A DNA stretch of 64,000 nucleotides from Patescibacteria group bacterium (GTDB lineage Bacteria > Patescibacteriota > Minisyncoccia > UBA6257 > JACRHW01). This document shows positions 2,039 to 64,000 of the stretch, one piece after another (position 1 is the first letter of the stretch; every line of letters starts with the position of its first letter). The translations under genes were made by a program, and so were the position numbers. The DNA is taken from the NCBI GenBank assembly GCA_028865725.1, contig JAGWJP010000001.1, positions 294,568 to 358,567 on the forward strand, written 5' to 3'. The notes under the pieces are model-generated. The model worked only from the letters and a program-made list of their open reading frames with translations. It did not search any database and was not told where the DNA came from.

Positions 2039-3847
2039 TTAGTGGATCAGGGAGTGTGTGATGAGCTCAAAGAGAAACGCAAACGGAGATTGTCTATACA
2101 GTGAAGCTTGTGGAGAAGGTTGAGACGCGGGAGTGTTCTGCGGCATCATCGTCTGTGGCATTTGTGGAGTATTTTCTGGAGTAGGCAGGGGAGGGGCGGA
2201 GAGTGTTCCGGGTAGGGCATTTTCTTCTCCCCCTTGCGGTGACATTATATTTTGAGGAGGCATTTGTATATTTGTATTTTGGGGAGGGAATGATCCTTGC
2301 TGTTCTTGATTCGTATAGGGCGTCTCCGATGGTTGGTTTCCTTGCGGTCCTCCTTGTGGCATAAATTGCTGATTTCCTTCTTGCGGGGGCATCGAGCCTT
2401 GTTGTTGAGGATAATGTTCCTGAGGTATCATTCCATCTTGTGAGGGCATAGTATTCCGGTTTAGCTGGTTTGGCATTCTGTTTCCATTTTGATCACTATT
2501 TCCATGGAAGGGAGGGATCATCGTCTGCTGCTGACCGCTATGCGGCATTTCTTGTGGTCCGTTCATTCTTTGCTGTTGAGGACCATTCATGAAGGGCGTG
2601 TTCGATCCGCCAGATTCTTGTTGATGCGCGTTTTGCTGCGGCATTTGTGGAAAGCATTGGCTCATTTTTTTGCCGATATCCGATGATGGCATAATACTTC
2701 CACTTTGTAATTTTTGAAGTGTGTCTGCCCCGATAGTATTGTTCAAACACGTAAGTACGTCAGGAGGAATGTTTTGCAGCGATTTTTGCATCTGTCCCTG
2801 CTGGCTTTGCATATTCTGAAGATCTTGTTGCGAAATCAGGCCATTATCTTTCGCAAAGTTGAAACATGCTTCCTGATTGTTCGGATCTTTACAGAAGGCA
2901 TCGCATGATTCTTTTGATGTGCATCCGCCAGGGCCTTTTCCCCCCGTTTTTTTTGCGATGGCGGCATCTTCCGGTGTCATAAAGCCCGCGGCGACCGCGA
3001 AATTTGTGCATTCATCAAAATGTGCAGGTTCGGCGCAGTAGGCATCGCACGCGTCTTTTCCTTTGCAATTCGGCGGTGTTACTCCTTTTTGAAGCGCGGT
3101 GAGCACTCCTTGTGAATTTTTTTCTTCTTCCGGAGTCATGAGGCCTGCCTGTTTTGCAAACGTGATGCAGGTCGCCATGTGGGCAGGTTCGGCGCAGTAA
3201 GCATCGCACGCATCTTTACCGTTACAAGGCGGCGGCGTAGCTCCGGCGTCAATAGCAGCTACCATTTTCTTTGCATTTTCCAGATCCTGCCCCCTAAGAA
3301 ATCCTGCTGCTTCCCCGAACGCTACGCACACATGCATATGTGCCGGTTCGCTGCAGTAGGTGTCACATTCTTCTTTGTTCTTGCAAGGCGGAGGTTGCAC
3401 CCCTTTTGCAAGCGCAGATTGTATCTGTTCTGCCTGTTGCAGTTTATCAGGCGGCAGGATTCCTGTTTTCTTTGCAAATGCGACGCACTCGTTGATATGC
3501 CCAATATCATTGCAATACGCTTCACACGATTGCTGATCGGTGCACCCTCCCGGTCCCTGGGTGTCTGCGGCAATAAACTTTTTTGCGATGGCCACGTCGT
3601 TCGGAGACATCAGATTATGTTGTTCTGCAAAATCAAGACATGCTTGCACGTGGGAAGCATCATCGCAATATGTTTTGCAATCCGACTTGCTTGAGCAGTT
3701 GCCTAGGGCGGAAACAGGATAGCTGATGGTGGCGGGCGATGTAACTGGTGCAGTGCTCGTGCTTTGTGCATGAATGTGCCGCGCAGGAATCAAGACAAAA
3801 GCTGTTGCGAGACTTAAAAAAACGAATGAGAAAAGAACACGTTTCAT
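2039..3847 (-). CDS. secreted cysteine-repeat protein with Met/Gln/Pro-rich low-complexity C-terminal tail
   Basis: 602 aa with an N-terminal signal peptide (MKRVLFSFVFLSLATAFVLIPARHIHA). It has six or seven tandem ~50-aa repeats of the pattern C-x4-6-C-x3-C-x4-H-x3-C-x2-FA, for example CKGKDACDAYCAEPAHFDECTNFA. The last ~230 aa are Q/P/M/N-rich with repeated MPPQ/MPQ motifs. Confidence 0.6.
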   Translation of the reverse strand: MKRVLFSFVFLSLATAFVLIPARHIHAQSTSTAPVTSPATISYPVSALGNCSSKSDCKTYCDDASHVQACLDFAEQHNLMSPNDVAIAKKFIAADTQGPGGCTDQQSCEAYCNDIGHINECVAFAKKTGILPPDKLQQAEQIQSALAKGVQPPPCKNKEECDTYCSEPAHMHVCVAFGEAAGFLRGQDLENAKKMVAAIDAGATPPPCNGKDACDAYCAEPAHMATCITFAKQAGLMTPEEEKNSQGVLTALQKGVTPPNCKGKDACDAYCAEPAHFDECTNFAVAAGFMTPEDAAIAKKTGGKGPGGCTSKESCDAFCKDPNNQEACFNFAKDNGLISQQDLQNMQSQQGQMQKSLQNIPPDVLTCLNNTIGADTLQKLQSGSIMPSSDIGKKMSQCFPQMPQQNAHQQESGGSNTPFMNGPQQQRMNGPQEMPHSGQQQTMIPPFHGNSDQNGNRMPNQLNRNTMPSQDGMIPQEHYPQQQGSMPPQEGNQQFMPQGGPQGNQPSETPYTNQEQQGSFPPQNTNIQMPPQNIMSPQGGEENALPGTLSAPPLPTPENTPQMPQTMMPQNTPASQPSPQASLYRQSPFAFLFELITHSLIH

Positions 3848-3848
3848 A

Positions 3849-4121
3849 TTATTTGAATGGGTTTGTTTTTATGGTTGTGAAAGGATTCGCTGTTTGAATA
3901 GGGTTGAGGTTCGGTTGATTTTGAAGGGGGGTGAGGGAGTTATTGAGAGAAGGAAGCACGCCCTGCGTAACACTTGAAGCAACTGTTTGTTCAAGCCCCG
4001 AAGAAGCGGGAGGAGGTGTTAGTTTTTTGTTTGATTTATATTTCCAAAAGATAAATCCCCCTACGATGAACACTATAATAGCGATGAACACTAAAAAAAT
4101 ATTATTATGTTTGGTAGACAT
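3849..4121 (-). CDS. small membrane-anchored protein, translationally coupled to the Cys-repeat protein
   Basis: 90 aa with an N-terminal TM helix (IFLVFIAIIVFIVGGFIFW). Its stop lies 1 nt before the downstream start at 3847. The C-terminal half is Pro/Asn/Thr-rich. Confidence 0.4.
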   Translation of the reverse strand: MSTKHNNIFLVFIAIIVFIVGGFIFWKYKSNKKLTPPPASSGLEQTVASSVTQGVLPSLNNSLTPLQNQPNLNPIQTANPFTTIKTNPFK

Positions 4122-4895: not shown

Positions 4896-4975
4896 TTGTC
4901 CGACAGATGATGTGAAACATATCTATGAGTCACTGGTATATGTTATAGTGAGATGAAAGATGATGCGAACATAAT

Positions 4976-8032: not shown

Positions 8033-8746
8033 TCATTCGTGGAGATTTGTCACTACATGGATACCATAGGCTTGGATAATCCCATTATTGTTGTCTCCTG
8101 CCACGTAGAGTTTATCGCCTTCATGAAGAGTGGCGACATTAAAAACAGAGGGAAGCATGACAGTCCATGTACCATCATCGGTGTCGCGGTCTGTATCATC
8201 GTGGCTGATCACCACCGTTTTATTTTTAATAGAAATTATTTTTCCGCGGAAGATTCCATGCGTGACATGAGAATCATGAATTTGTTCGTACCACGAGCCA
8301 ATAAGCGGCAACTTATCCTGATCTGCCTTGTCGAGAAGCGCGCGGTGGAGCGATGTGCTGTTAAGTGCGAGGCTTCCTAGGAGGGCGACCATGATGATAA
8401 GGAGAAAGATGGCAAGTAGCGAGGTGCGGTACCCAAATTTAAATAAACGCCAGAGCCATTCCACAAGAAGAACCAGAATGATATCGATTTCAAAAAGCAT
8501 CCAGGGAAAGAGAATTAAAAACGTGATAATACCTGACAGGCCAAAGCCAAGTAAAAACTGTTCCCCACTTTCTTGAAGACTAAAGAGTACAAAGCTCATG
8601 ATGAACATCGTGAGTATAAGGGCGCCCAAAGAAAGAACAGCTACCAAAATAATTTGTGCCGCAAAATAGAGTTTGGGGCGCATGTGTATTTTCTTCTCTT
8701 TAATTTTTTCCAACACACGTGTTGAAATGTCCGTATCGTGAGGCAT
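8033..8746 (-). CDS. membrane protein between the ECF sigma gene and the FMN module (possible anti-sigma or system component)
   Basis: 237 aa with about 4 TM helices, then a C-terminal ~100-aa extracytoplasmic domain rich in Asp/Thr. It lies immediately downstream of the ECF sigma gene, with an 8-bp gap. It has no canonical anti-sigma HxxxCxxC motif. Confidence 0.35.
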   Translation of the reverse strand: MPHDTDISTRVLEKIKEKKIHMRPKLYFAAQIILVAVLSLGALILTMFIMSFVLFSLQESGEQFLLGFGLSGIITFLILFPWMLFEIDIILVLLVEWLWRLFKFGYRTSLLAIFLLIIMVALLGSLALNSTSLHRALLDKADQDKLPLIGSWYEQIHDSHVTHGIFRGKIISIKNKTVVISHDDTDRDTDDGTWTVMLPSVFNVATLHEGDKLYVAGDNNNGIIQAYGIHVVTNLHE

Positions 8747-8754
8747 AGTGTATA

Positions 8755-9333
8755 TTAGTGCGTATTATAATGTGTCGCGGAATGAAGTAATTTTTTTAAT
8801 AGTTCTTTTCCGCGTCGCAATCTGATGCCCACCGTCCCTATTGGAATGTGGAGGATGTCTGCAATTTCTTGATAGCGTAGCTCTTCTCCATAAAACAAAA
8901 TGAGTACTTCCCGATAGATTGCAGGAATTGTATTCAGGCCTGACTCCAACATCGCATTCATATGCTGCGCCTCCTCTTTATTTTCCAATTTTTCTTCGTA
9001 GGTGGGGTGAGAAAGGAGTGTGTCAAAATTCATGAAAAGCAAAGGAGTGTGTTGTCGTGTCCGGAGTGCGTTCACAAATGCGTTATGTGCAATGCGGTAG
9101 AGCCACGGAGAAAATCGTTTTGAAGTATCGAAACTTTGGATATTTTGATACGCACGTATAAAAATATCTTGGACGATATCTTCAATGTGGCTGTGTTCTG
9201 CAAGGAATCTTCGGCCATAACGAAGCAGACGATCTTGGTACCTCTTCATTAATACCCCAAATGCCATCTCATTATTTCCTTGCACGCGTGCGACGAGTTC
9301 CTCGTCGGATAAATTCTCCTCAGAAATAGCCAT
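8755..9333 (-). CDS. ECF-type RNA polymerase sigma-70 family factor
   Basis: 192 aa. Region 2 reads DIVQDIFIRAYQNIQSF...WLYRIAHNAFVNALR. Region 4 reads REVLILFYGEELRYQEIADILHIPIGTVGIRLRRGKELL. Confidence 0.8.
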   Translation of the reverse strand: MAISEENLSDEELVARVQGNNEMAFGVLMKRYQDRLLRYGRRFLAEHSHIEDIVQDIFIRAYQNIQSFDTSKRFSPWLYRIAHNAFVNALRTRQHTPLLFMNFDTLLSHPTYEEKLENKEEAQHMNAMLESGLNTIPAIYREVLILFYGEELRYQEIADILHIPIGTVGIRLRRGKELLKKLLHSATHYNTH

Positions 9334-9431
9334 ATCTTTGTTCTTCTCCAGTGTACGTAAATTTATCTTGATTGTATATGTAGGACAACACAGATCGGTG
9401 TGTCCTCTCTGCGTGTATGGTACAATAAAAT

Positions 9432-11882: not shown

Positions 11883-11952
11883 GGAACAGTGTGGTAGAGT
11901 GGATGGGGAGATCTGCGTTCCCCGTGTATTGCATCAATTTTTAATGAAGTAA

Positions 11953-12531
11953 ATGAAAAATATGATTACCATTGGACACCCTATCGAAGATTTTGAAGTA
12001 AAGGCATATGATCCGCGTAAGGATCGTTTTGTAACAGTGAAGTCTGAGGAATATCGTGGAAGGTGGGTGCTGCTCGTGTTTTATCCGGCTGATTTCACGT
12101 TTGTTTGTCCCACGGAGCTTGAGGATTTAGCGGATCATTATGATGCGTTCAACGCACTCGGAGCAGAGGTCATGAGTATCTCGACCGATACTGAGTTCGT
12201 GCACAAGGCATGGCATGATCACTCAGAAGCAATTAAAAAAGTGCCGTTTCTTATGCTTGCAGACCCAACCGGAAATGTGTGTCGTGAATTCGGAGTGTAT
12301 CTTGATCAAGAGGGACTTGCGTTACGCGGAACGTTTGTGATTGACCCCGATGGAGTATTAAAAACAATTGAGATTCACGATAATGCTATAGGGCGAAGCG
12401 CGAAAGAATTGTTGCGCAAGCTTCAGGCGGCAAAATTTGTTCGCGAACACAAGGGCAATGTGTGTCCCGCAAGTTGGGAGCCGGAAGGGAAAACACTTGA
12501 GCCCGGCATTGATCTGGTGGGGAAGATCTAA
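11953..12531 (+). CDS. typical 2-Cys peroxiredoxin (AhpC/TSA family)
   Basis: 192 aa. The peroxidatic Cys lies in FTFVCPTEL and the resolving Cys in GNVCPASW. Confidence 0.8.
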   Translation: MKNMITIGHPIEDFEVKAYDPRKDRFVTVKSEEYRGRWVLLVFYPADFTFVCPTELEDLADHYDAFNALGAEVMSISTDTEFVHKAWHDHSEAIKKVPFLMLADPTGNVCREFGVYLDQEGLALRGTFVIDPDGVLKTIEIHDNAIGRSAKELLRKLQAAKFVREHKGNVCPASWEPEGKTLEPGIDLVGKI

Positions 12532-12545
12532 GGAGACTTCCGTTC

Positions 12546-14069
12546 CTATGATTCGATAAACACCTCTTCGTGTGGAGAGGTGTTTTTAGGCACGCGAATA
12601 AACAATGCGCTTACTGCCCCTATGCCAAGAAGCACTGATGCGATAGCAAATACATCTCCGTACGAGGCTACTTGAGCTTTCAGTATCATGAGTCCTATCG
12701 CTCGACGATAATCGAGCGCATTGGTGAGATGAATCGTGCTCCACATAGAGATGCGCAGTAATCGTGCTTCTGTGGTGTGTTGTAAGATGGTTCCGAATAT
12801 TGCGATGCCAAATGCACCGGCAATATTGCGTGCCAGTGCAAGGATCGATGAGGCGACACCGATTTCGTGTTGAGGAACTACGGATGCAATGATATTCGTG
12901 CGCTGCGGCATACCAAAACCAAGCCCGAATGCCATAATGGATAAGGGGATAATAATATCAAGCGGACCGGAGCGTGGATCGAGTCGGGAGAACAAAGAAA
13001 TACCAAGCGCGGCTACGAGCGTACTCGCCGCAATTACGTAACGCGGTTCTACTTTTCCTGTAAGATTTCCTCCGATAGGTGCGGCGATGAGCATCATAAA
13101 TGCCATTGGCATGAAGAGGTATCCGGATTGCGTGGCGTCGTATCCCAGAAATGTTTGCACAAAAATCGGAATCAGGAATATGCCGCCCATCATTCCCATA
13201 AAAATAATGATATTGTTGTTCAGCGTGTGTACGAATGCCGGTATTCTAAAGAATTTGAAATCGATAATGGGATCCGGGTGATGCCGTTCTATGGCCACAA
13301 ATACAGCCATAAATACAAGGACGGTACTATAAGCAATTATGCTGTTTGTGGAAAGCCAGCCCCATTCGAGACCTTTGTCGAGCACAAGGACAAGAGCAGA
13401 AAGCGCGCTTCCGAGTGTCAGTGCTCCCCACCAATCGAACACACTCGTTTTCTTTTCCGATGTTGATTCCTTAATAAATGAAAGCGCCATCAAAAGCCCG
13501 ACAATTCCGACTGGTAAGTTGACAAGAAATACCGACCGCCACCCAAACGTATCGATAAGCGGTCCCCCCACAAGCGGTCCAAAGACTGTTGCTGCTGCAA
13601 AGGATGCGGACCAGATTCCAAGAGCTTGCGCACGTTCTTTTCCTTCGCGAAACGTGATCGCAAGAATGGCCATAGCCGTAGGGTAATCCGCGGATCCTGC
13701 AATGGCTTGAATAATGCGAAACGCGATCATGGAAGTAAGGTTCCACGAGAGTCCGGCAAGGATGGATCCTATAATAAATACGACAAACCCAATAATATAT
13801 ACTTTTTTCCTTCCGATTGTATCACCTAGTTTTCCCCATACGGGTACAAAAATTGCGTTGGCAAGAATATACGCGGTGGCAATCCATCCTGCCGCCGAAA
13901 CCGTAATGCCAAAATCGTTAATAATTTTAGGAAGCGCGAGATTGACAATAGTTTGATCAAGTCTCCCCAAAAACGTCCCCACCATTACCGTGAGAAGAAC
14001 GAGCCACCGCGTAGAGGAGGATCCAGCGGGGACAGGGTGCTCGTGCGGAGATGCTATGGGGAGATCCAT
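12546..14069 (-). CDS. MFS drug:H+ antiporter, DHA2 (EmrB/QacA) family, 14-TM type
   Basis: 507 aa. The MFS motifs GRLDQTIVNLALP and GKLGDTIGRKKV are present, and the length and TM count fit DHA2. It overlaps the upstream adaptor gene by 16 nt. Confidence 0.75.
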   Translation of the reverse strand: MDLPIASPHEHPVPAGSSSTRWLVLLTVMVGTFLGRLDQTIVNLALPKIINDFGITVSAAGWIATAYILANAIFVPVWGKLGDTIGRKKVYIIGFVVFIIGSILAGLSWNLTSMIAFRIIQAIAGSADYPTAMAILAITFREGKERAQALGIWSASFAAATVFGPLVGGPLIDTFGWRSVFLVNLPVGIVGLLMALSFIKESTSEKKTSVFDWWGALTLGSALSALVLVLDKGLEWGWLSTNSIIAYSTVLVFMAVFVAIERHHPDPIIDFKFFRIPAFVHTLNNNIIIFMGMMGGIFLIPIFVQTFLGYDATQSGYLFMPMAFMMLIAAPIGGNLTGKVEPRYVIAASTLVAALGISLFSRLDPRSGPLDIIIPLSIMAFGLGFGMPQRTNIIASVVPQHEIGVASSILALARNIAGAFGIAIFGTILQHTTEARLLRISMWSTIHLTNALDYRRAIGLMILKAQVASYGDVFAIASVLLGIGAVSALFIRVPKNTSPHEEVFIES

Positions 14070-17149: not shown

Positions 17150-17331
17150 CGAAAAACATAGATTTCCTTCCCCGACTGATAAAATATGACCTAGTTTAAT
17201 AGGAGATGCTGCGGCGGTTGTAGTGGTAATGGCTGCTGACCCAATTGAGTTGCTTTGTAATGTTTGGTGTCTTGTGAGAAGGTCTCGTACTGCGATGAAA
17301 TGGATCCTGATGCGAGGAGCCTCTACCATAC

Positions 17332-21549: not shown

Positions 21550-21554
21550 TTAAA

Positions 21555-21658
21555 AGTTATCCATAACTACTCATCACCCGCATAAGTAATTAAAAATCTT
21601 CTGTTTGTAGAGGGATATGTATGAAGTTATCCACAATTGCATAAGGGTGAATGAGTGA
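21555..21658. promoter_or_regulatory. paired repeat / inverted-arm element in divergent promoter region
   Basis: Direct repeat AGTTATCCA(T/C)AA(C/T)T at about 21555 and about 21625. Inverted arms ACTCATCACCC and GGGTGAATGAGT. GCATAAG occurs twice. The element lies between the divergent dus gene and the giant surface-protein gene. Confidence 0.3.
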
Positions 21659-21724
21659 TATACTCCAAGGTGATAGTTTTTTAAAACTAACTTTATTTAT
21701 TTTATTATTAATTTTATAAGAAGG

Positions 21725-31655: not shown

Positions 31656-31719
31656 TATTAGCATATTTTTTGTGAAACAAAGAGCGCGTGCTACAATAAA
31701 AACGGTTAACTATATTTTT

Positions 31720-34104
31720 ATGAACGCAAAACAGGTTTCTATTCCCACTGTTCTTGTTATTTTTGGTGCAACCGGAGATCTTATGGCTCGGAAAATCGCT
31801 CCTGCATTATTTAACCTCTCGCAAAAAGGAAAGCTCCCTGAGAAACTGAGATTTGTAGGGGTAGCGCGAAGAGAGTTGTCCTCCATCGATTTTCGTAAAC
31901 ATTTAAAAGACGCGCTCAAAGGGCGTGTAAAGGGTACTTCAACACAGGTTCATGAGTTTCTTGATATGTTTCTGTACCACCAAGGACTTCTTGATGCGCG
32001 CGAAATGTATATTTCTCTCGCAGAGGTACTCCATAGTATTGATGAAGAGTGGGGTGTGTGCAGTAACAAACTTTTTTATCTCGCGGTTCCTCCGGAGCTT
32101 TACAAAACGATATTCGAACATCTTGCCGCATCAGGGCTTACTATTCCTTGTGGAGGGGATGAAGGGTGGACACGTGTCCTTGTGGAAAAGCCGTTTGGGA
32201 GCGATCTGGCAACCGCAGAGGAACTTGATCGGGTATTGGGTTCCTTGTTCCACGAGAGTCAGATTTACCGCATCGATCATTATCTCGCGAAAGAAATGAT
32301 ACAGAATATTCTCGCATTTCGTTTTTCCAACAATCTTTTTGAAGAGAGCTGGGATGCGCACCACATTGAACGTATCGACATACGACTGTTCGAGACGCTC
32401 GGGGTAGAGGAGCGCGGAATGTTTTATGATCACGTGGGCGCATTGGTGGATGTGGGACAAAACCATCTCTTGCAGATGCTCGCGCTTATTGCGATGGACC
32501 CCCCTACTTCTCTCGGCGCGGAGAGCGTGCGAAAAGCGCGCGCACATATTTTAGAGAGTTTGCATCCAATGTCTTCTCGCGATATCCAGTATGCCACCTT
32601 TCGTGGCCAGTATAGGGGGTATTTGGACATTAAAGGCGTGCGTCCTCGCTCTACCACGGAGACATTTTTTAAGATTATTACGACACTTGATCATCCGCGC
32701 TGGGGATCTGTTCCATTTGTGCTGGAAGGCGGGAAAGGGATGGCGGAACAGCGAAAAGAGATTGTGGTTACGTTTCGTCACCCCACCCCGTGTTTGTGTC
32801 CCCCTCTGCAACACTACAAAAATAAGGTTATTATCTCGCTCGAGCCTCATGAAAGTATTGTGATTCAATTTTGGTCTAAGAAACCAGGATTTGATTTTCA
32901 AATGGAAGAACGCACCTTTGATTTCTTTTTGCGTGATGCGAAGGTGAGATCTCAGTATGTAGAAGAGTATGAAAAATTGCTTCTTGATTGTATCGCGGGA
33001 GATCAAACGTTGTTTGTAAGTACCGATGAGGTGCGTGCGATGTGGAGGTTTATTGATCCTATCGTAGCTGCATGGCGCGGTGAAAAAACGGTGCCCGTTG
33101 TTTCTTATACGCGCGGATCGAATGAGGCGGCAGAAAAGTCGGTTGTGCTTGAGAAGTCTTTGCTTCCTGTAACACTAAAGCATAAAGAAGTTGCGATTGT
33201 GGGATTGGGAAAAATGGGTGGAAATATTGCGCGCCAGCTTTTGCGGAAGGGGTGGCATGTCACAGGGTTTAATCGCTCGCGTGAGGCGACTGACGCACTC
33301 ACGAAGGAAGGGCTTTGTGGCGTGTATGAGGCAAAAAATCTTTTCGATACGCTTCACGCTCCTCGTATCTTCTGGTTTATGCTGCCGTCGCGCGAAACAG
33401 GGAATATCGCACCCATCGACGGGATATTATTTGGGAAAAATGGAATTGCAGCACAGCTTCGCAAAGGCGATATTGTGATTGATGGCGCAAACGCGTTTTA
33501 TAAGGATTCGATACGCCGCTATCGCGCGCTCAAAAAGCGTGGGGTAGGGTTTCTTGACGTAGGTGTTTCAGGTGGCCCTCAAGGCGCACTCCGTGGCGCA
33601 TCGCTCATGATTGGGGGTGATCGTGAAGTGTTTCTGCGCGCAGAGCCACTGTTTCGTGATATTGCGGAGTTGGGTGCCTACCAATTCTTCGAAGGCGCAG
33701 GTGCGGGACATTTTGTGAAGATGGTACACAACGGCATTGAGTACGGAATGATGCAGGCCTTGGCAGAAGGGTTTGCGATTATGAAGGCTTCGAAGTACCA
33801 CCTCGATCTTACTCGTGTTGCTGATGTCTACAACCATGGCAGTGTGATAGAGTCACGTCTTGTGGGTTGGTTGAAACAAGGGTTTATTACCTATGGCGAG
33901 GATCTTCGTAGTGTTTCAGGGACGGTGGGGCATACCGGTGAGGGGGCATGGACTGTTGAGACCGCAAAAGAACTGAAGGTGCAGGTAAAGATTATTGAGG
34001 GCGCGCTCCAGTTTCGCAAACAGTCCGCAAAGAACCCAAGTTATACAGGAAAGATTCTTAGCATGATTCGTAACCAGTTCGGAGGACACAGTATTAGTAG
34101 TTAG
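31720..34104 (+). CDS. zwf: fused glucose-6-phosphate 1-dehydrogenase / 6-phosphogluconate dehydrogenase (decarboxylating, short form)
   Basis: The N-terminal ~480 aa carry VIFGATGDLMARKIAPALFNL (the G6PD NADP fold), RIDHYLAKEMIQNILAFRFSN (the G6PD active-site motif) and a G6PD C-terminal domain. The C-terminal ~300 aa carry VAIVGLGKMGGNIARQL, GVSGGPQGALRGASLMIGG and GAGHFVKMVHNGIEYGMMQ (6PGDH/Gnd-like). The start is preferred at ATG 31720. Confidence 0.75.
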   Translation: MNAKQVSIPTVLVIFGATGDLMARKIAPALFNLSQKGKLPEKLRFVGVARRELSSIDFRKHLKDALKGRVKGTSTQVHEFLDMFLYHQGLLDAREMYISLAEVLHSIDEEWGVCSNKLFYLAVPPELYKTIFEHLAASGLTIPCGGDEGWTRVLVEKPFGSDLATAEELDRVLGSLFHESQIYRIDHYLAKEMIQNILAFRFSNNLFEESWDAHHIERIDIRLFETLGVEERGMFYDHVGALVDVGQNHLLQMLALIAMDPPTSLGAESVRKARAHILESLHPMSSRDIQYATFRGQYRGYLDIKGVRPRSTTETFFKIITTLDHPRWGSVPFVLEGGKGMAEQRKEIVVTFRHPTPCLCPPLQHYKNKVIISLEPHESIVIQFWSKKPGFDFQMEERTFDFFLRDAKVRSQYVEEYEKLLLDCIAGDQTLFVSTDEVRAMWRFIDPIVAAWRGEKTVPVVSYTRGSNEAAEKSVVLEKSLLPVTLKHKEVAIVGLGKMGGNIARQLLRKGWHVTGFNRSREATDALTKEGLCGVYEAKNLFDTLHAPRIFWFMLPSRETGNIAPIDGILFGKNGIAAQLRKGDIVIDGANAFYKDSIRRYRALKKRGVGFLDVGVSGGPQGALRGASLMIGGDREVFLRAEPLFRDIAELGAYQFFEGAGAGHFVKMVHNGIEYGMMQALAEGFAIMKASKYHLDLTRVADVYNHGSVIESRLVGWLKQGFITYGEDLRSVSGTVGHTGEGAWTVETAKELKVQVKIIEGALQFRKQSAKNPSYTGKILSMIRNQFGGHSISS

Positions 34105-34290
34105 TATGTCAGTGTATTAATACGTTATATTTGCCACTCGAGTTTCGGGTATAGGGTGTGTGAGAAAATAGAAGGCAGCAAATAGAAAATAGTATGCGAA
34201 CGTATTCTGAACCAGCTGAAGAAGCGAAGAGAATAAGTCGAGAATCTTCCCGATTCTAAACCCATTAACACGCAATACAAACGAATCTCT

Positions 34291-34372
34291 AAGCACTAAT
34301 TACTAAGCACTAATTACTCTCGTTACGTTCTCGTTTGTGATAACTAACACACTAACAAACTCAACAATGATG
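34291..34372 (+). promoter_or_regulatory. conserved upstream element (tandem 14-bp duplication plus a shared motif pair), also present upstream of rseP at about 63561..63612
   Basis: Perfect tandem AAGCACTAATTACT x2 at 34291-34318. The block ACTAATTACTCTCGTTACGTTC is followed by the 12-mer ACTAACAAACTC, ending 4 nt before the ATG at 34367. The same 12-mer and a 26-mer with 4 mismatches occur 4 nt before the rseP start. Confidence 0.4.
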
Positions 34373-35347
34373 TACGACGCAATACAAAACTTTTCAAAAC
34401 AATTTGAGTACGAGCCGGTGGTTGAAAATGCGGATTTCTTACCGCGCGCAACAACATTTGTGGTGGTAGGAATGGGGGGCTCTCATCTTGCCGCGGATCT
34501 TATTCGTGCCTGGAAACCTGATGCAAACATTGTGGTGCATCGTGATTACGGGCTTCCTTCTATCGCGCGTAGTGAGGAGCGTGATGTGCTTGTGGTCATA
34601 AGCTCCTATTCGGGAAATACCGAAGAAGTGCTTGATGCACTCCATGTGGCTCGTGCCGAGGACTTTCCTGTGGCAGTGATTGCAAAAGGCGGCAAGCTTT
34701 TGGAAGAGGCGTATGCGAATACTTTTCCGTATGTAAAACTTCCTGATATGGATTTGCAGCCTCGGCTTGCAATAGGGCTTAGTATGCTGGGGCTTTTGGC
34801 GCTTATGGGGGATACAGAAGGAGTGCGTGAAGTGCAGCGACTTGCTGCTTCGTTACGTCCTAATGACTGGGAGGAGAAGGGAAAACAGTATGCCGAGATG
34901 CTTTACGGGCGCATACCACTTATCTACGCGTCCACGCGTAATACCGCACTTGCCTATATTTGGAAAATTACTCTCAACGAAACAGGCAAGATCCCCGCGT
35001 TTTATAACGTATTTCCCGAATTGAATCACAATGAGATGACCGGATTTGATATCGCGGCTTCTACACATGAGCTTAGCAAGCTCTTTGCGTGCGTGATGCT
35101 AAAAGACGAGACTGACGATGTGCGTATCATCCGTCGTATTAAGATTACCGAGCGGTTGTATCATGACCGCGCTATCCCTGCACATACGATCGTATTTCCT
35201 GGGGAATCACGCATTTATTCTCTTTTCTCACTTATCGTACTCATAGAATGGGTGGCCTATTATATTGCCACACGCTACGATCGCGATCCTGAAGAAGTTC
35301 CCATGATCGAAGAATTCAAACGAAACATCGCAGATAACCGTTCATAG
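34367..35347 (+). CDS. bifunctional phosphoglucose/phosphomannose isomerase (SIS domain, archaeal-type PGI/PMI)
   Basis: The N-terminus MMYDAIQNFSKQF and the SIS P-loop VVGMGGSHLAA match the PGI/PMI family. The protein is about 326 aa. The track start at 34337 is GTG inside the conserved upstream motif. Confidence 0.6.
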   Translation: MMYDAIQNFSKQFEYEPVVENADFLPRATTFVVVGMGGSHLAADLIRAWKPDANIVVHRDYGLPSIARSEERDVLVVISSYSGNTEEVLDALHVARAEDFPVAVIAKGGKLLEEAYANTFPYVKLPDMDLQPRLAIGLSMLGLLALMGDTEGVREVQRLAASLRPNDWEEKGKQYAEMLYGRIPLIYASTRNTALAYIWKITLNETGKIPAFYNVFPELNHNEMTGFDIAASTHELSKLFACVMLKDETDDVRIIRRIKITERLYHDRAIPAHTIVFPGESRIYSLFSLIVLIEWVAYYIATRYDRDPEEVPMIEEFKRNIADNRS

Positions 35348-35727: not shown

Positions 35728-35780
35728 TAAATAAATTCCAAATTTTTGCCTTTTGATTTTTAACTTTTGCATTTACTATT

Positions 35781-37054: not shown

Positions 37055-37110
37055 TTTTCTACTATTTTCTAGATTCTATTTTCTAGTTTCTAGATACTAG
37101 ATTCTTCATG
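37055..37110. repeat. TCTAGA-rich repeat cluster in the atpE-atpF spacer
   Basis: TTTTCTAGATTCTATTTTCTAGTTTCTAGATACTAGATTC contains three CTAGA(T) cores. It is related to AATCTAGAA clusters at about 46150-46185 and about 60733-60766. Confidence 0.4.
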
Positions 37111-42932: not shown

Positions 42933-43046
42933 TAAGAATAGAATAGCACGCGAGTGCTATTTTTTAATATGTTTTGGACCTTAATCCATTTCACATCTGC
43001 GGAGTTTTTTGTTACAATACGTATATTATTAAGTTACTTATTATCT

Positions 43047-55661: not shown

Positions 55662-55745
55662 AATAAATTTAAAACTCAAAATGCAAAAGTCAAAACTAAA
55701 ACTTAAAAATAAAAACTATATTCCGTTAGTTTTAACTTTTGATTT

Positions 55746-57896: not shown

Positions 57897-58023
57897 TCAC
57901 TCCTCATTCAATGACCTGGTCCGATGCTAACATAGACGGCTTTTTTTTTGCAAGATTATGGAGAACGTAGTTTTTAAAAGGGTATGATAAAATAAGGGTT
58001 ATTATGTATAGTATCAATCGAGT

Positions 58024-60732: not shown

Positions 60733-60766
60733 GTCAGAATCTAGAATATAGAAAATCTAGAATTTA
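60733..60766. repeat. AATCTAGAA-motif pair upstream of mreB
   Basis: GAATCTAGAATATAGAAAATCTAGAATT: two copies, 16 bp apart, about 60-90 bp upstream of the mreB start. Confidence 0.4.
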
Positions 60767-60827
60767 GGATAAAGAATTTCGCTGTTTGTTTTTCTCGTAT
60801 TTATTTTTTTTCTATCCCATCATTATA

Positions 60828-62673: not shown

Positions 62674-62918
62674 CCTTTCGCCGTCTTTGGGTGGTATTTT
62701 AGATCAGCGTTTTCGTACGTCGCATCATCAACCATCTCGGGATATTCCAGGATTTTTGTTATTTTGACCTATTGAAGAAAGCGAATATAAACGATAGAAT
62801 GAACATGTATCTTGTGAAGGACCTATCGTGAGCCGACTATAGACTGCAGGTATTTTTGTTTTTTTATAACTGGCGTCCTCATACACTAACAGACTAACTA
62901 GCTAATAATCTTAGAGTT

Positions 62919-63458
62919 ATGGATTATATCAAACAATTTGAGTCAACGTTGCAGCATATCGTGGATAATTTTTCTCTTGAAATTCGCGCGTTAAAAGCAG
63001 GGCAGGCATCCCCCGCGTTAATAGAAGATATCGACGTTCCTTGCTATGGAGATCAGGTGATGAAGTTAAAACAAATTGCTGCGATTTCTGTTTCGTCTTC
63101 TCGCGAAATGGTAATTCAGCCATGGGATGCTGCGCTTATCCAGCCTATCGCGAAAGCAGTAAGTGACATCCCTGGGGGTGTGCAAATTACGCCTGACAAA
63201 AATCTTGTACGGATAGTGCTGCCGGTGCTTACTGAAGAGCGAAGGAGGGAGTTTATAAAGTTGGTGAACAAAATGGCAGAGGAGTCGCGTATTAAAATGC
63301 GTCATGCGAGAGATGATATGAATAAGAAAGTGGAAACGATTGCCGCCGAAGATGAGCGTTTTCGCACCAAAGACGGTATCGATGATGCTACAAAACGATT
63401 TCAAAAAGATATTGATCTTGCAGCAGCAAACAAGGAGAAAGAACTTCTTGCTTTCTAG
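62919..63458 (+). CDS. frr: ribosome recycling factor
   Basis: 179 aa. IRALKAGQASPALIEDIDVPCYG, VIQPWDAALIQPIAKAV and the C-terminal KKVETIAAEDERFRTKDGIDDATKRFQKDID are RRF signatures. Confidence 0.9.
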   Translation: MDYIKQFESTLQHIVDNFSLEIRALKAGQASPALIEDIDVPCYGDQVMKLKQIAAISVSSSREMVIQPWDAALIQPIAKAVSDIPGGVQITPDKNLVRIVLPVLTEERRREFIKLVNKMAEESRIKMRHARDDMNKKVETIAAEDERFRTKDGIDDATKRFQKDIDLAAANKEKELLAF

Positions 63459-63616
63459 CAGTGTTCGTAGTCAGTGCGTAGTGATGAGGCATTCATGTAT
63501 TCAATCTTGTTGGAAATTTGCATGTACCTACTTATTAAAAACTTTTCTAAACACTAGGCATTAAGAACTAATTACTTTCGTTGCGCTCATACACCAAAAG
63601 ACTAACAAACTCGATT

Positions 63617-64000
63617 GTGTCTATCATTATTTCTATCCTCATTATTGCGTTTCTTGTATTTATCCATGAGCTGGGTCATTTTTTGGCGGCCAAACGTGCA
63701 GGAGTACTGGTGGAGGAGTTTGGTATTGGGTTTCCTCCTCGTTTGTTTTCTTGGAGGCGGGGAGAGACACTCTATACGCTGAATCTGCTCCCTCTTGGCG
63801 GATTTGTGAAAATTTATGGCGAAGGGAATGAGTTTAAAGACGATCTTAGAAGTTTTGCGTCGCGTTCTATCCTTACGCGCGCGGGTATTGTTTCTGCAGG
63901 AGTTGCAATGAATGCGCTTTTTGGCATGGTGTTGCTTATCATTGCATATAGTATCGGGTTCCCTTCTGTGGTAACCCCAGAGAACAAGGCATTTATTCAT
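63617..64000 (+). CDS. RseP-like site-2 protease (M50 zinc metalloprotease), 5' partial, runs off window
   Basis: Read manually from the + strand; it is absent from the ORF track because no stop falls inside the window. The product starts [30 protein letters not shown]... and carries the HExxH zinc motif at aa 17-21. [15 protein letters not shown] lies downstream. GTG start at about 63617. Confidence 0.6.

Follow-up and report, generated by a model that had tools for sequence, protein, structure and literature searches.

A shared upstream module preceding pgi/pmi and rseP in a Patescibacteria group bacterium, possibly a duplicated 5′ leader

The shared module

We analysed a stretch of 64,000 nucleotides (the window) of contig JAGWJP010000001.1 from an uncultured, Parcubacteria-like Patescibacteria group bacterium (GCA_028865725.1), together with ~9 kb on each side, amounting to 82,094 nt with 76 gene calls. 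Two unrelated plus-strand housekeeping genes in the window encode a bifunctional phosphoglucose/phosphomannose isomerase (pgi/pmi, hereafter pgi; 34367..35347, 326 aa, start ATG 34367) and an M50 site-2 protease (rseP; 5′ part at 63617..64000, start GTG 63617, continuing beyond the window end, 354 aa). Both are preceded by a co-linear module of ~75–80 nt (34285–34362 for pgi and 63543–63612 for rseP), which is sense-oriented relative to the downstream gene and ends 4 nt before its start codon.

The module consists of two blocks, both on the plus strand. Block 1 spans 46 nt without gaps (34285..34330 and 63543..63588), with 35/46 positions identical. In the pgi copy it comprises four AAnnACT heptads followed by CTCGTTACGTTC and holds the perfect 14-bp tandem AAGCACTAATTACT at 34291–34318, reported by Tandem Repeats Finder (TRF) at 34289–34318 with period 14, 2.1 copies and 100% matches. 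The rseP copy reads AAACACT AGGCATT AAGAACT AATTACT, then TTCGTTGCGCTC, and in it AAACACTAGGCATT corresponds, in degenerate form, to the first 14-mer copy of pgi. Between the blocks lies an 8-nt indel, equivalent to an insertion on the pgi side, where a pgi-specific plus-strand spacer (34331..34342) accompanies a TCTCGTT repeat of 11-nt period (starts at 34319 and 34330). Block 2 covers 20 nt (34343..34362 and 63593..63612; 17/20 identical), reading ACTAACAC ACTAACAA ACTC upstream of pgi and ACCAAAAG ACTAACAA ACTC upstream of rseP. It contains the exact 12-mer ACTAACAAACTC (34351–34362 and 63601–63612), positioned at −16 to −5 in both genes and present exactly twice in 64 kb and in the full 82 kb alike. 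TRF detects a second array at 34342–34367 (period 8, 3.1 copies, 83%), and with its period-14 and period-8 arrays the pgi copy shows the short head-to-tail units of slippage-type tandem duplication.

The initial annotation had described the tandem at 34291–34318, the 22/26 identical positions between the 26-mers at 34305–34330 and 63563–63588, and the identical 12-mer ending exactly 4 nt before each start codon. All of these elements were recovered at their reported positions, and the similarity extends further than first described, with a fairly even identity along its length (76–85%). A degenerate pattern of the 26-mers matches these 2 sites only, with 0 expected.

This similarity is far beyond chance. 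A BLAST comparison among all intergenic regions aligned 76 nt of the two leaders (E 2–3e-7); simple-repeat families aside, no other two intergenic regions gave a better direct match. The pair also had the highest Smith-Waterman score (28) of 2850 pairs of upstream regions, with maxima of 15–21 in 60 shuffled control sets. An nhmmer profile of the two copies matched only those copies (E 3e-21 and 6e-18). The exact 12-mer pair by itself is weak evidence in 64 kb, in contrast to the whole module: near-matches with ≤2 mismatches are not enriched (10 observed versus 5.5 expected), and a 12-nt identical run at the same start-codon offset was reached in 2 of 200 shuffles, the second-best real pair sharing 8 nt.

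A partial relative, CTCATACACTAACAGACTAAC (62878..62898, + strand), lies 21–41 nt before the frr ATG at 62919 and is identical to 63586–63606 at 18/21 positions, although its membership is uncertain. BLAST among intergenic regions recovered this match over 26 nt (85%, E 0.006). The related element that the initial annotation had placed upstream of frr is indeed present near that site (62885–62898), but on its own it is at chance level and sits 21–34 nt from the start codon rather than 4. Since the frr–rseP score of 18 falls within the shuffle range and the nhmmer E-value is 0.8, we regard it as a possible relative of the module and not an established one. The 82 kb thus hold two full copies and one doubtful copy, all sense-oriented.

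Gene starts, gene order and distribution

Homologue N-termini and the public record agree with the earlier preference for ATG 34367 over GTG 34337 as the pgi start. All 27 aligned homologues start at MYEAI, MMYEAI or MIYDAI, none carries the 10-residue extension from GTG 34337, and the publicly recorded isomerase comprises 326 residues from ATG 34367; ATG 34370 is possibly the start. For rseP, the called start GTG 63617 is supported by the N-terminus of a homologue: the Pfam M50 match starts at residue 7 of the predicted product, and the homologue in a relative (locus L017) has 17 residues before HELGH compared with 16 here. N-terminal extensions from the in-frame GTG 34337 and TTG 63581, both of which would give ...LTNS..., were rejected because homologues lack such an extension and the DNA similarity crosses in-frame stops further upstream. 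No small open reading frame (ORF) common to both loci was found.

Upstream of pgi lies a co-directional fusion of glucose-6-phosphate dehydrogenase (G6PD) and 6-phosphogluconate dehydrogenase (6PGD), referred to below as zwf–gnd, and downstream an ASCH gene followed by the F-type ATP synthase operon. The fusion is a single ORF of 794–810 aa (31720–34104) directly before pgi, in which G6PD_N/C is joined to a 6PGD-type NAD-binding and C-terminal domain. holB and frr are situated upstream of rseP. In L017, whose pgi is 49% identical, rseP (100–1113) lies directly upstream of pgi (1152–2111) with a gap of ~40 nt, and the pgi and rseP genes of the window may once have been neighbours.

The closest pgi homologues are 48–53% identical (the nearest, among 5.8 billion proteins, 53%) and belong to metagenome-assembled genomes of Nomurabacteria, Sungbacteria, Liptonbacteria and Paceibacterota, that is, Parcubacteria-type members of the candidate phyla radiation (CPR). 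Other contigs with the same pgi protein are 100% identical, and paralogues of window proteins are almost absent from the 82 kb. As a comparison set we used 80 metagenome loci of distant relatives (780 kb). The module is absent from this DNA, with no score of its nhmmer profile better than E 0.25, and the strongest intergenic–intergenic matches inspected in these relatives were tRNA genes, terminators and other structured repeats, with no shared leaders among them. A pattern scan with AAGNACTAATTACTNTCGTT over a collection of genome contigs that does not include the source assembly returned only 3 unrelated chance matches (Maribacter, Oscillospiraceae, Chloroflexota). Searches for a mobile or phage origin gave no BLAST match in phage genomes and 62 isolated, chance-level matches in a pattern scan of viral contigs, none of which reached beyond the seed. 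One relative (L011) carries three intergenic copies of a ~60-nt sequence, AAAAAGGTTCGAACATCCCT...GGCAGGCGTCCTGTCCCGTGCAC (11944–12007, 12541–12600 and 13022–13084; 84–90% identical), ~1–3 kb downstream of its pgi; this is a different kind of repeat from the pgi/rseP module.

The module does not resemble a structured RNA. Rfam gave 0 matches at the gathering threshold in the window and only noise at E-values up to 10, ARAGORN found no tRNA or tmRNA at the module, and the 82 kb contain no rRNA genes. Sense-strand minimum free energies are −7.9 and −6.0 kcal/mol per ~100 nt (z +0.55 and +0.68), neither strand folds better than shuffled sequences (z +0.35 to +1.04), and the RNAalifold consensus contains 0 pairs on the sense strand and reaches −1 kcal/mol on the antisense strand. 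Thus neither the covariance-model match nor the stable or conserved fold of a structured cis-regulatory RNA is seen. As repeated non-coding DNA restricted to intergenic regions, the module recalls repetitive extragenic palindromic sequences and bacterial interspersed mosaic elements (REP/BIME) or repeats resembling miniature inverted-repeat transposable elements (MITEs). Unlike these, however, it has neither a palindromic hairpin nor terminal inverted repeats, its ends TCTAAGCACTAA and ACTAACAAACTC being non-complementary, and in the 82 kb covered it occurs in only 2–3 copies, with a fixed orientation and start distance.

Transcriptional and translational context

Promoters recognisable in this genome follow the extended −10 pattern TGnTAnnnT, commonly as TGnTACAAT or TGnTATACT, and have no conserved −35 element (examples at 4941–4949, 9418–9426, 31689–31697, 43010–43018 and 57985–57993). 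Intergenic DNA makes up 13% of the sequence and holds 50 of the 179 occurrences of this motif, which cluster 17–35 nt upstream of starts, implying short leaders. Upstream of pgi, TGTGATAAC (34336–34344, + strand) resembles the extended −10 with a hexamer ending 22 nt before the ATG. This hexamer matches at 4/6 positions, without T at positions 1 and 6, and is pgi-specific and partly made by the insertion; the aligned place in rseP offers only CATACACC. Block 1 contains weak plus-strand −10-like elements, TACTCT (34315–34320) in pgi and TACTTT (63573–63578) in rseP, which lack TGn and are the lowest-scoring of all genes scored. A sigma-70 consensus scan returned 0 sites for the pgi region, and in the frr–rseP region no predicted site fell inside the module or close to it. 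No plus-strand intrinsic terminator is present between zwf–gnd and pgi or between frr and rseP, and read-through transcription into both genes is therefore plausible. Hairpin-plus-T-run sequences that look terminator-like by eye are present elsewhere in the window.

The same absence of terminators is compatible with a Rho-utilisation (rut)-like tract, in which the module would act as ~78 nt of C-rich, G-poor, unstructured RNA where Rho-dependent termination or attenuation is relieved by downstream ribosome loading. Unlike the genes followed by terminator-like sequences elsewhere, neither zwf–gnd nor frr has an intrinsic terminator, and the tract shows the composition of rut sites (~80 nt, C-rich, G-poor, without predicted secondary structure). 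Its last 78 nt contain C and G in ratios of 20/7 (pgi) and 18/8 (rseP), in the top 1.5% and 3.3% of windows of an otherwise G-rich strand, and 34244–34321 has 23 C and 5 G. However, rut sites are defined by composition, which does not require the shared sequence that defines the module, the C>G skew is stronger in many coding windows, and a site abutting the next start codon would terminate transcription within that gene. No rho gene lies within the 82 kb, and we consider this reading very unlikely.

Transcription might also proceed in the opposite direction. The reverse complement of ACACTAACA/AGACTAACA, namely TGTTAGTGT/TGTTAGTCT, fits the dominant promoter type TGnTAnnnT on the minus strand at three loci (34349–34357, 63599–63607 and 62883–62891), so that the 46-nt block would form the 5′ part of an antisense transcript or small RNA leading away from pgi or rseP. 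A minus-strand terminator-like hairpin is located ~90 nt downstream at the pgi locus (34253–34238), but the rseP locus lacks a comparable one. Furthermore, the minus-strand consensus fold reaches only −1 kcal/mol, folds of the single sequences do not outperform shuffled ones (z 0.35), the three motif matches represent one homologous event rather than independent ones, and the constant spacing from the sense starts would be left unexplained. The minus-strand matches at the ACTAACA core may mark an antisense promoter or be a coincidence, and we rate an antisense function as highly improbable.

A further candidate is an operator or regulon site, in which the four AAnnACT heptads (period 7/14), the ACTAAY repeats or both would bind one DNA- or RNA-binding regulator of pgi, rseP and perhaps frr. 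The heptads are in phase in both copies, and related words occur at similar offsets before the minus-strand gene 8033–8746 (GCACTAAT) and before greA just outside the window (AAGAACTAAT). CTAAYA begins at −17 to −12 in 6 genes and is present in 8/76 genes compared with a shuffle mean of 3.2, yet the ACTAAY enrichment disappears once upstream composition is controlled for (6 genes; control mean 3.1, maximum 8). Continuous similarity over 75–80 nt is far too long for an operator, the 7/14-bp period is off the helical repeat, pgi, rseP and frr have no functional link, and no regulator emerged as a candidate, the response regulator encoded nearby consisting of a receiver domain only. A variant involving an extracytoplasmic function (ECF) sigma factor (GMAC-N15-CGYTC) fares no better: the module contains AAGAAC/AAGCAC-N15-CGCTC/CGTTC, whose spacing departs from that of ECF promoters (GAAC −35 and CGT −10, 16–17 nt apart, with the motif before the sigma gene), and the same motif is absent upstream of the window's ECF sigma gene (8755–9333, minus strand). 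An operator is therefore doubtful in our view.

Two sequences share words with the 26-mer box: GCACTAATAT (8747–8763, minus strand) and AAGAACTAATAT (about 70213–70234 in the extension; about 17295–17316 in locus L003). They lie at −15 to −6 before gene 8033–8746 (minus strand), which is downstream of the ECF sigma gene, and before greA, and the two have 8 consecutive nt in common at an identical offset. Among the top-scoring intergenic tandem arrays, six have a period of 7 (or 14/21), at 34163–34192, 34289–34318, 35742–35774, 37062–37105, 55671–55717 and 60736–60777, with the units AGAAAAT, AAGCACT/AATTACT, TTTTGAC, CTAGTTT/CTAGATT, AAAACTC and AGAATAT. Such arrays lie upstream of pgi, atpB, atpF, tgt and mreB, and the TAG/CTAG and AAAAnnn families are found in either orientation with respect to the gene downstream. 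The UAG-N4-UAG spacing is reminiscent of HutP-type sites.

With regard to translation, Shine-Dalgarno (SD)-like 4-mers at −20 to −4 precede 11/76 genes (14.5%), compared with 11.6% of random windows and 14.1% of internal ATGs. Being at background, they indicate that pgi and rseP, in lacking an SD, are typical of this genome and not set apart from its other genes. AGGA/GGAG is nevertheless 3–5-fold enriched at −20 to −6 relative to −60 to −25, so a minority of genes probably still relies on the canonical SD. The 12-mer overlaps the usual SD position but, unlike an SD, is G-free and has no complementarity to CCUCC, and GGAG, GAGG and AGGA are absent from −20 to −4 of both genes; it is not a member of this class. 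Upstream regions are generally G-poor (15% versus 24% genome-wide; 9–11% in the module), and start regions are less structured than coding windows (−12.0 versus −17.7 kcal/mol per 90 nt), the starts of pgi, rseP and frr taking ranks 9, 13 and 14 when all 76 are ordered from the least structured upwards. Immediately before the start codon (position −1), 43/76 genes have T and 20/76 have C, with G and A strongly avoided. According to one published survey, roughly half of Parcubacteria show no detectable anti-SD motif (PMC9297842), and SD diversity has been treated previously (PMC5850609).

The genome lacks a leaderless-type −10 peak at 6–7 nt among its 76 gene starts, and neither pgi nor rseP has a −10 box ending 6–7 nt before its start. 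In the relatives' loci L010–L040, pgi and many other genes look leaderless, with TATAAT-like boxes ending 6–7 nt before the ATG. TANNNT counts among the 297 genes of the relatives are 32 and 23 at distances of 6 and 7 compared with about 8–12 elsewhere, GGTATAAT words are 5–8-fold enriched at −20 to −6, and SD-like motifs are at background (34/297). Within the library searched, no paper was found that connects Parcubacteria with leaderless mRNAs.

The initial annotation had raised, as one possibility, that a subset of genes relies on the 12-mer as an alternative signal for translation initiation, which our results do not bear out: the lack of an SD is general here, and the 12-mer occurs twice in 82 kb and nowhere in the 780 kb of relatives. 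The proposed tabulation of the 12-mer against start codons, carried out on the 82 kb, placed both copies 4 nt from starts and yielded no further copies. A more specific version holds that the G-free ACUAACAAACUC, or its core CUAAYA at about −15, substitutes for the SD in a small set of housekeeping genes by recruiting the 30S subunit via a non-canonical rRNA segment, S1 or another protein. ACUAACAAACUC occupies the SD position, CTAAYA begins at −17 to −12 in 6/76 genes, and CTAA is 3-fold enriched at −20 to −6 relative to −60 to −25. CAAACUC is complementary to the universal 16S 5′-end GAGUUUG, a site that is inaccessible in the mature 30S subunit. However, the exact 12-mer precedes only 2/76 genes and its copies are homologous, the motif is absent from relatives, where CTAAYA is scattered across 297 genes, the frr copy stands at a different distance from its start, and AGGA/GGAG is itself enriched at −20 to −6, suggesting that a functional canonical anti-SD persists for a minority of genes. 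We consider an SD substitute the least probable of the readings discussed here.

Elsewhere in the window, a minus-strand gene (2039–3847) encodes a 602-aa protein with three ~159-nt (53-aa) internal repeats at 3021–3438 (65–72% identical) and only a weak defensin-like Pfam match. The region upstream of its start (3849–4121), for which a 90-aa ORF was called, has a coding strand extremely rich in C and poor in G. A candidate oriC or DnaA-box cluster near 21550–21724 was rejected, as DnaA boxes are not enriched and GC skew shows no switch.

A possible duplicated leader

We propose, with a probability of roughly 40%, that the module is a lineage-specific duplicated 5′ leader or promoter-proximal cassette, shaped by slippage, that supplies an unstructured region for SD-independent initiation. 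One ancestral promoter-proximal region with its 5′ leader would have been duplicated and would now stand before pgi and rseP, possibly with a third, partial copy before frr. The cassette would be transcribed in the sense direction, either by read-through (from zwf–gnd into pgi and from frr into rseP) or from the weak internal −10-like elements, and its A/C/U-rich, G-poor RNA, predicted to be unstructured, would keep the start codon open to SD-independent 30S binding, which appears to be the normal mode of initiation in this genome. The 12-mer at −16 to −5 may correspond to the leader segment bound within the 30S subunit; this position would account both for its being better conserved than the rest and for the absence of indels that shift it. 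The 46-nt block is likewise indel-free, the indel and the tandem repeats being found where spacing is less critical. The 14-bp tandem, the 11-nt TCTCGTT repeat and an 8-nt ACTAACAn repeat would be products of replication slippage in cryptically simple sequence. Because rseP adjoins pgi in L017, a simple origin by duplication and deletion is allowed: an ancestral rseP–pgi neighbourhood could have been duplicated, with reciprocal deletions then fusing the old leader to pgi, a scenario drawn from that single locus.

The closest known systems are SD-independent, unstructured A/U(C)-rich initiation regions, such as S1-dependent leaders (for example the U-rich enhancer of E. coli atpE) and the 'Kozak-like' translation initiation regions of Bacteroidetes. 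The module resembles these in being G-poor, free of predicted structure and immediately upstream of the start codon, within a genome whose SD motifs do not exceed background. However, those regions reflect preferences of most genes, whereas the module is a specific ~75-nt sequence in two genes only, which points to common descent rather than a general signal. Paralogous promoter-leader regions are a second point of comparison. These share with the module its co-linearity, sense orientation, similarity up to the start codon, few copies and lineage-specific occurrence, but differ from it in that the module has no recognisable strong TGnTAnnnT promoter. Most likely, the cassette is one more paralogous non-coding upstream sequence, here from a lineage that has received little study; a class-wide initiation signal or a new ribosome-binding signal is not supported.

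Several points weigh against a functional leader. There are only two, perhaps three, copies in the 82 kb searched, and constraint is therefore inseparable from recent common descent. No good match to the genome's own TGnTAnnnT consensus was found on the sense strand of the module, where the sigma-70 scan was likewise empty. With the rest of the module at ~78% identity, an exact 12-mer comes as only a mild surprise, and low structure and low G are common to many leaders here and do not explain this particular shared sequence.

A neutral alternative is that the copies are the relic of slippage-prone, cryptically simple intergenic DNA that was duplicated, or spread by gene conversion, fairly recently and acts only as a spacer. 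Such a relic would account for the 2–3 copies in 82 kb and 0 in 780 kb of relatives, for the fairly even identity of 76–85% and for the lack of any structure, ORF or known motif in the module, and several intergenic regions of the window contain unrelated short-period arrays that point to active slippage. On the other hand, the similarity stops at the same offset (−5) from two start codons and the most conserved piece is the start-proximal 12-mer, which argues mildly against neutrality. Both copies are also sense-oriented in a compact genome with few long intergenic regions, and the 46-nt block is without indels. We regard a neutral relic as unlikely but not implausible.

As it stands, the duplicated leader is a modest lineage-specific curiosity, with two copies and conservation within one genome. 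If functional, it would provide a ready-made, organism-native expression signal for Patescibacteria/CPR, whose promoters and initiation rules are almost uncharacterised, and a concrete case in which to test how start codons are selected in a genome whose genes mostly lack an SD. Perhaps more useful than the module itself is its wider context, comprising an SD-poor genome, an extended −10 consensus, apparently leaderless genes in relatives and period-7 intergenic arrays.

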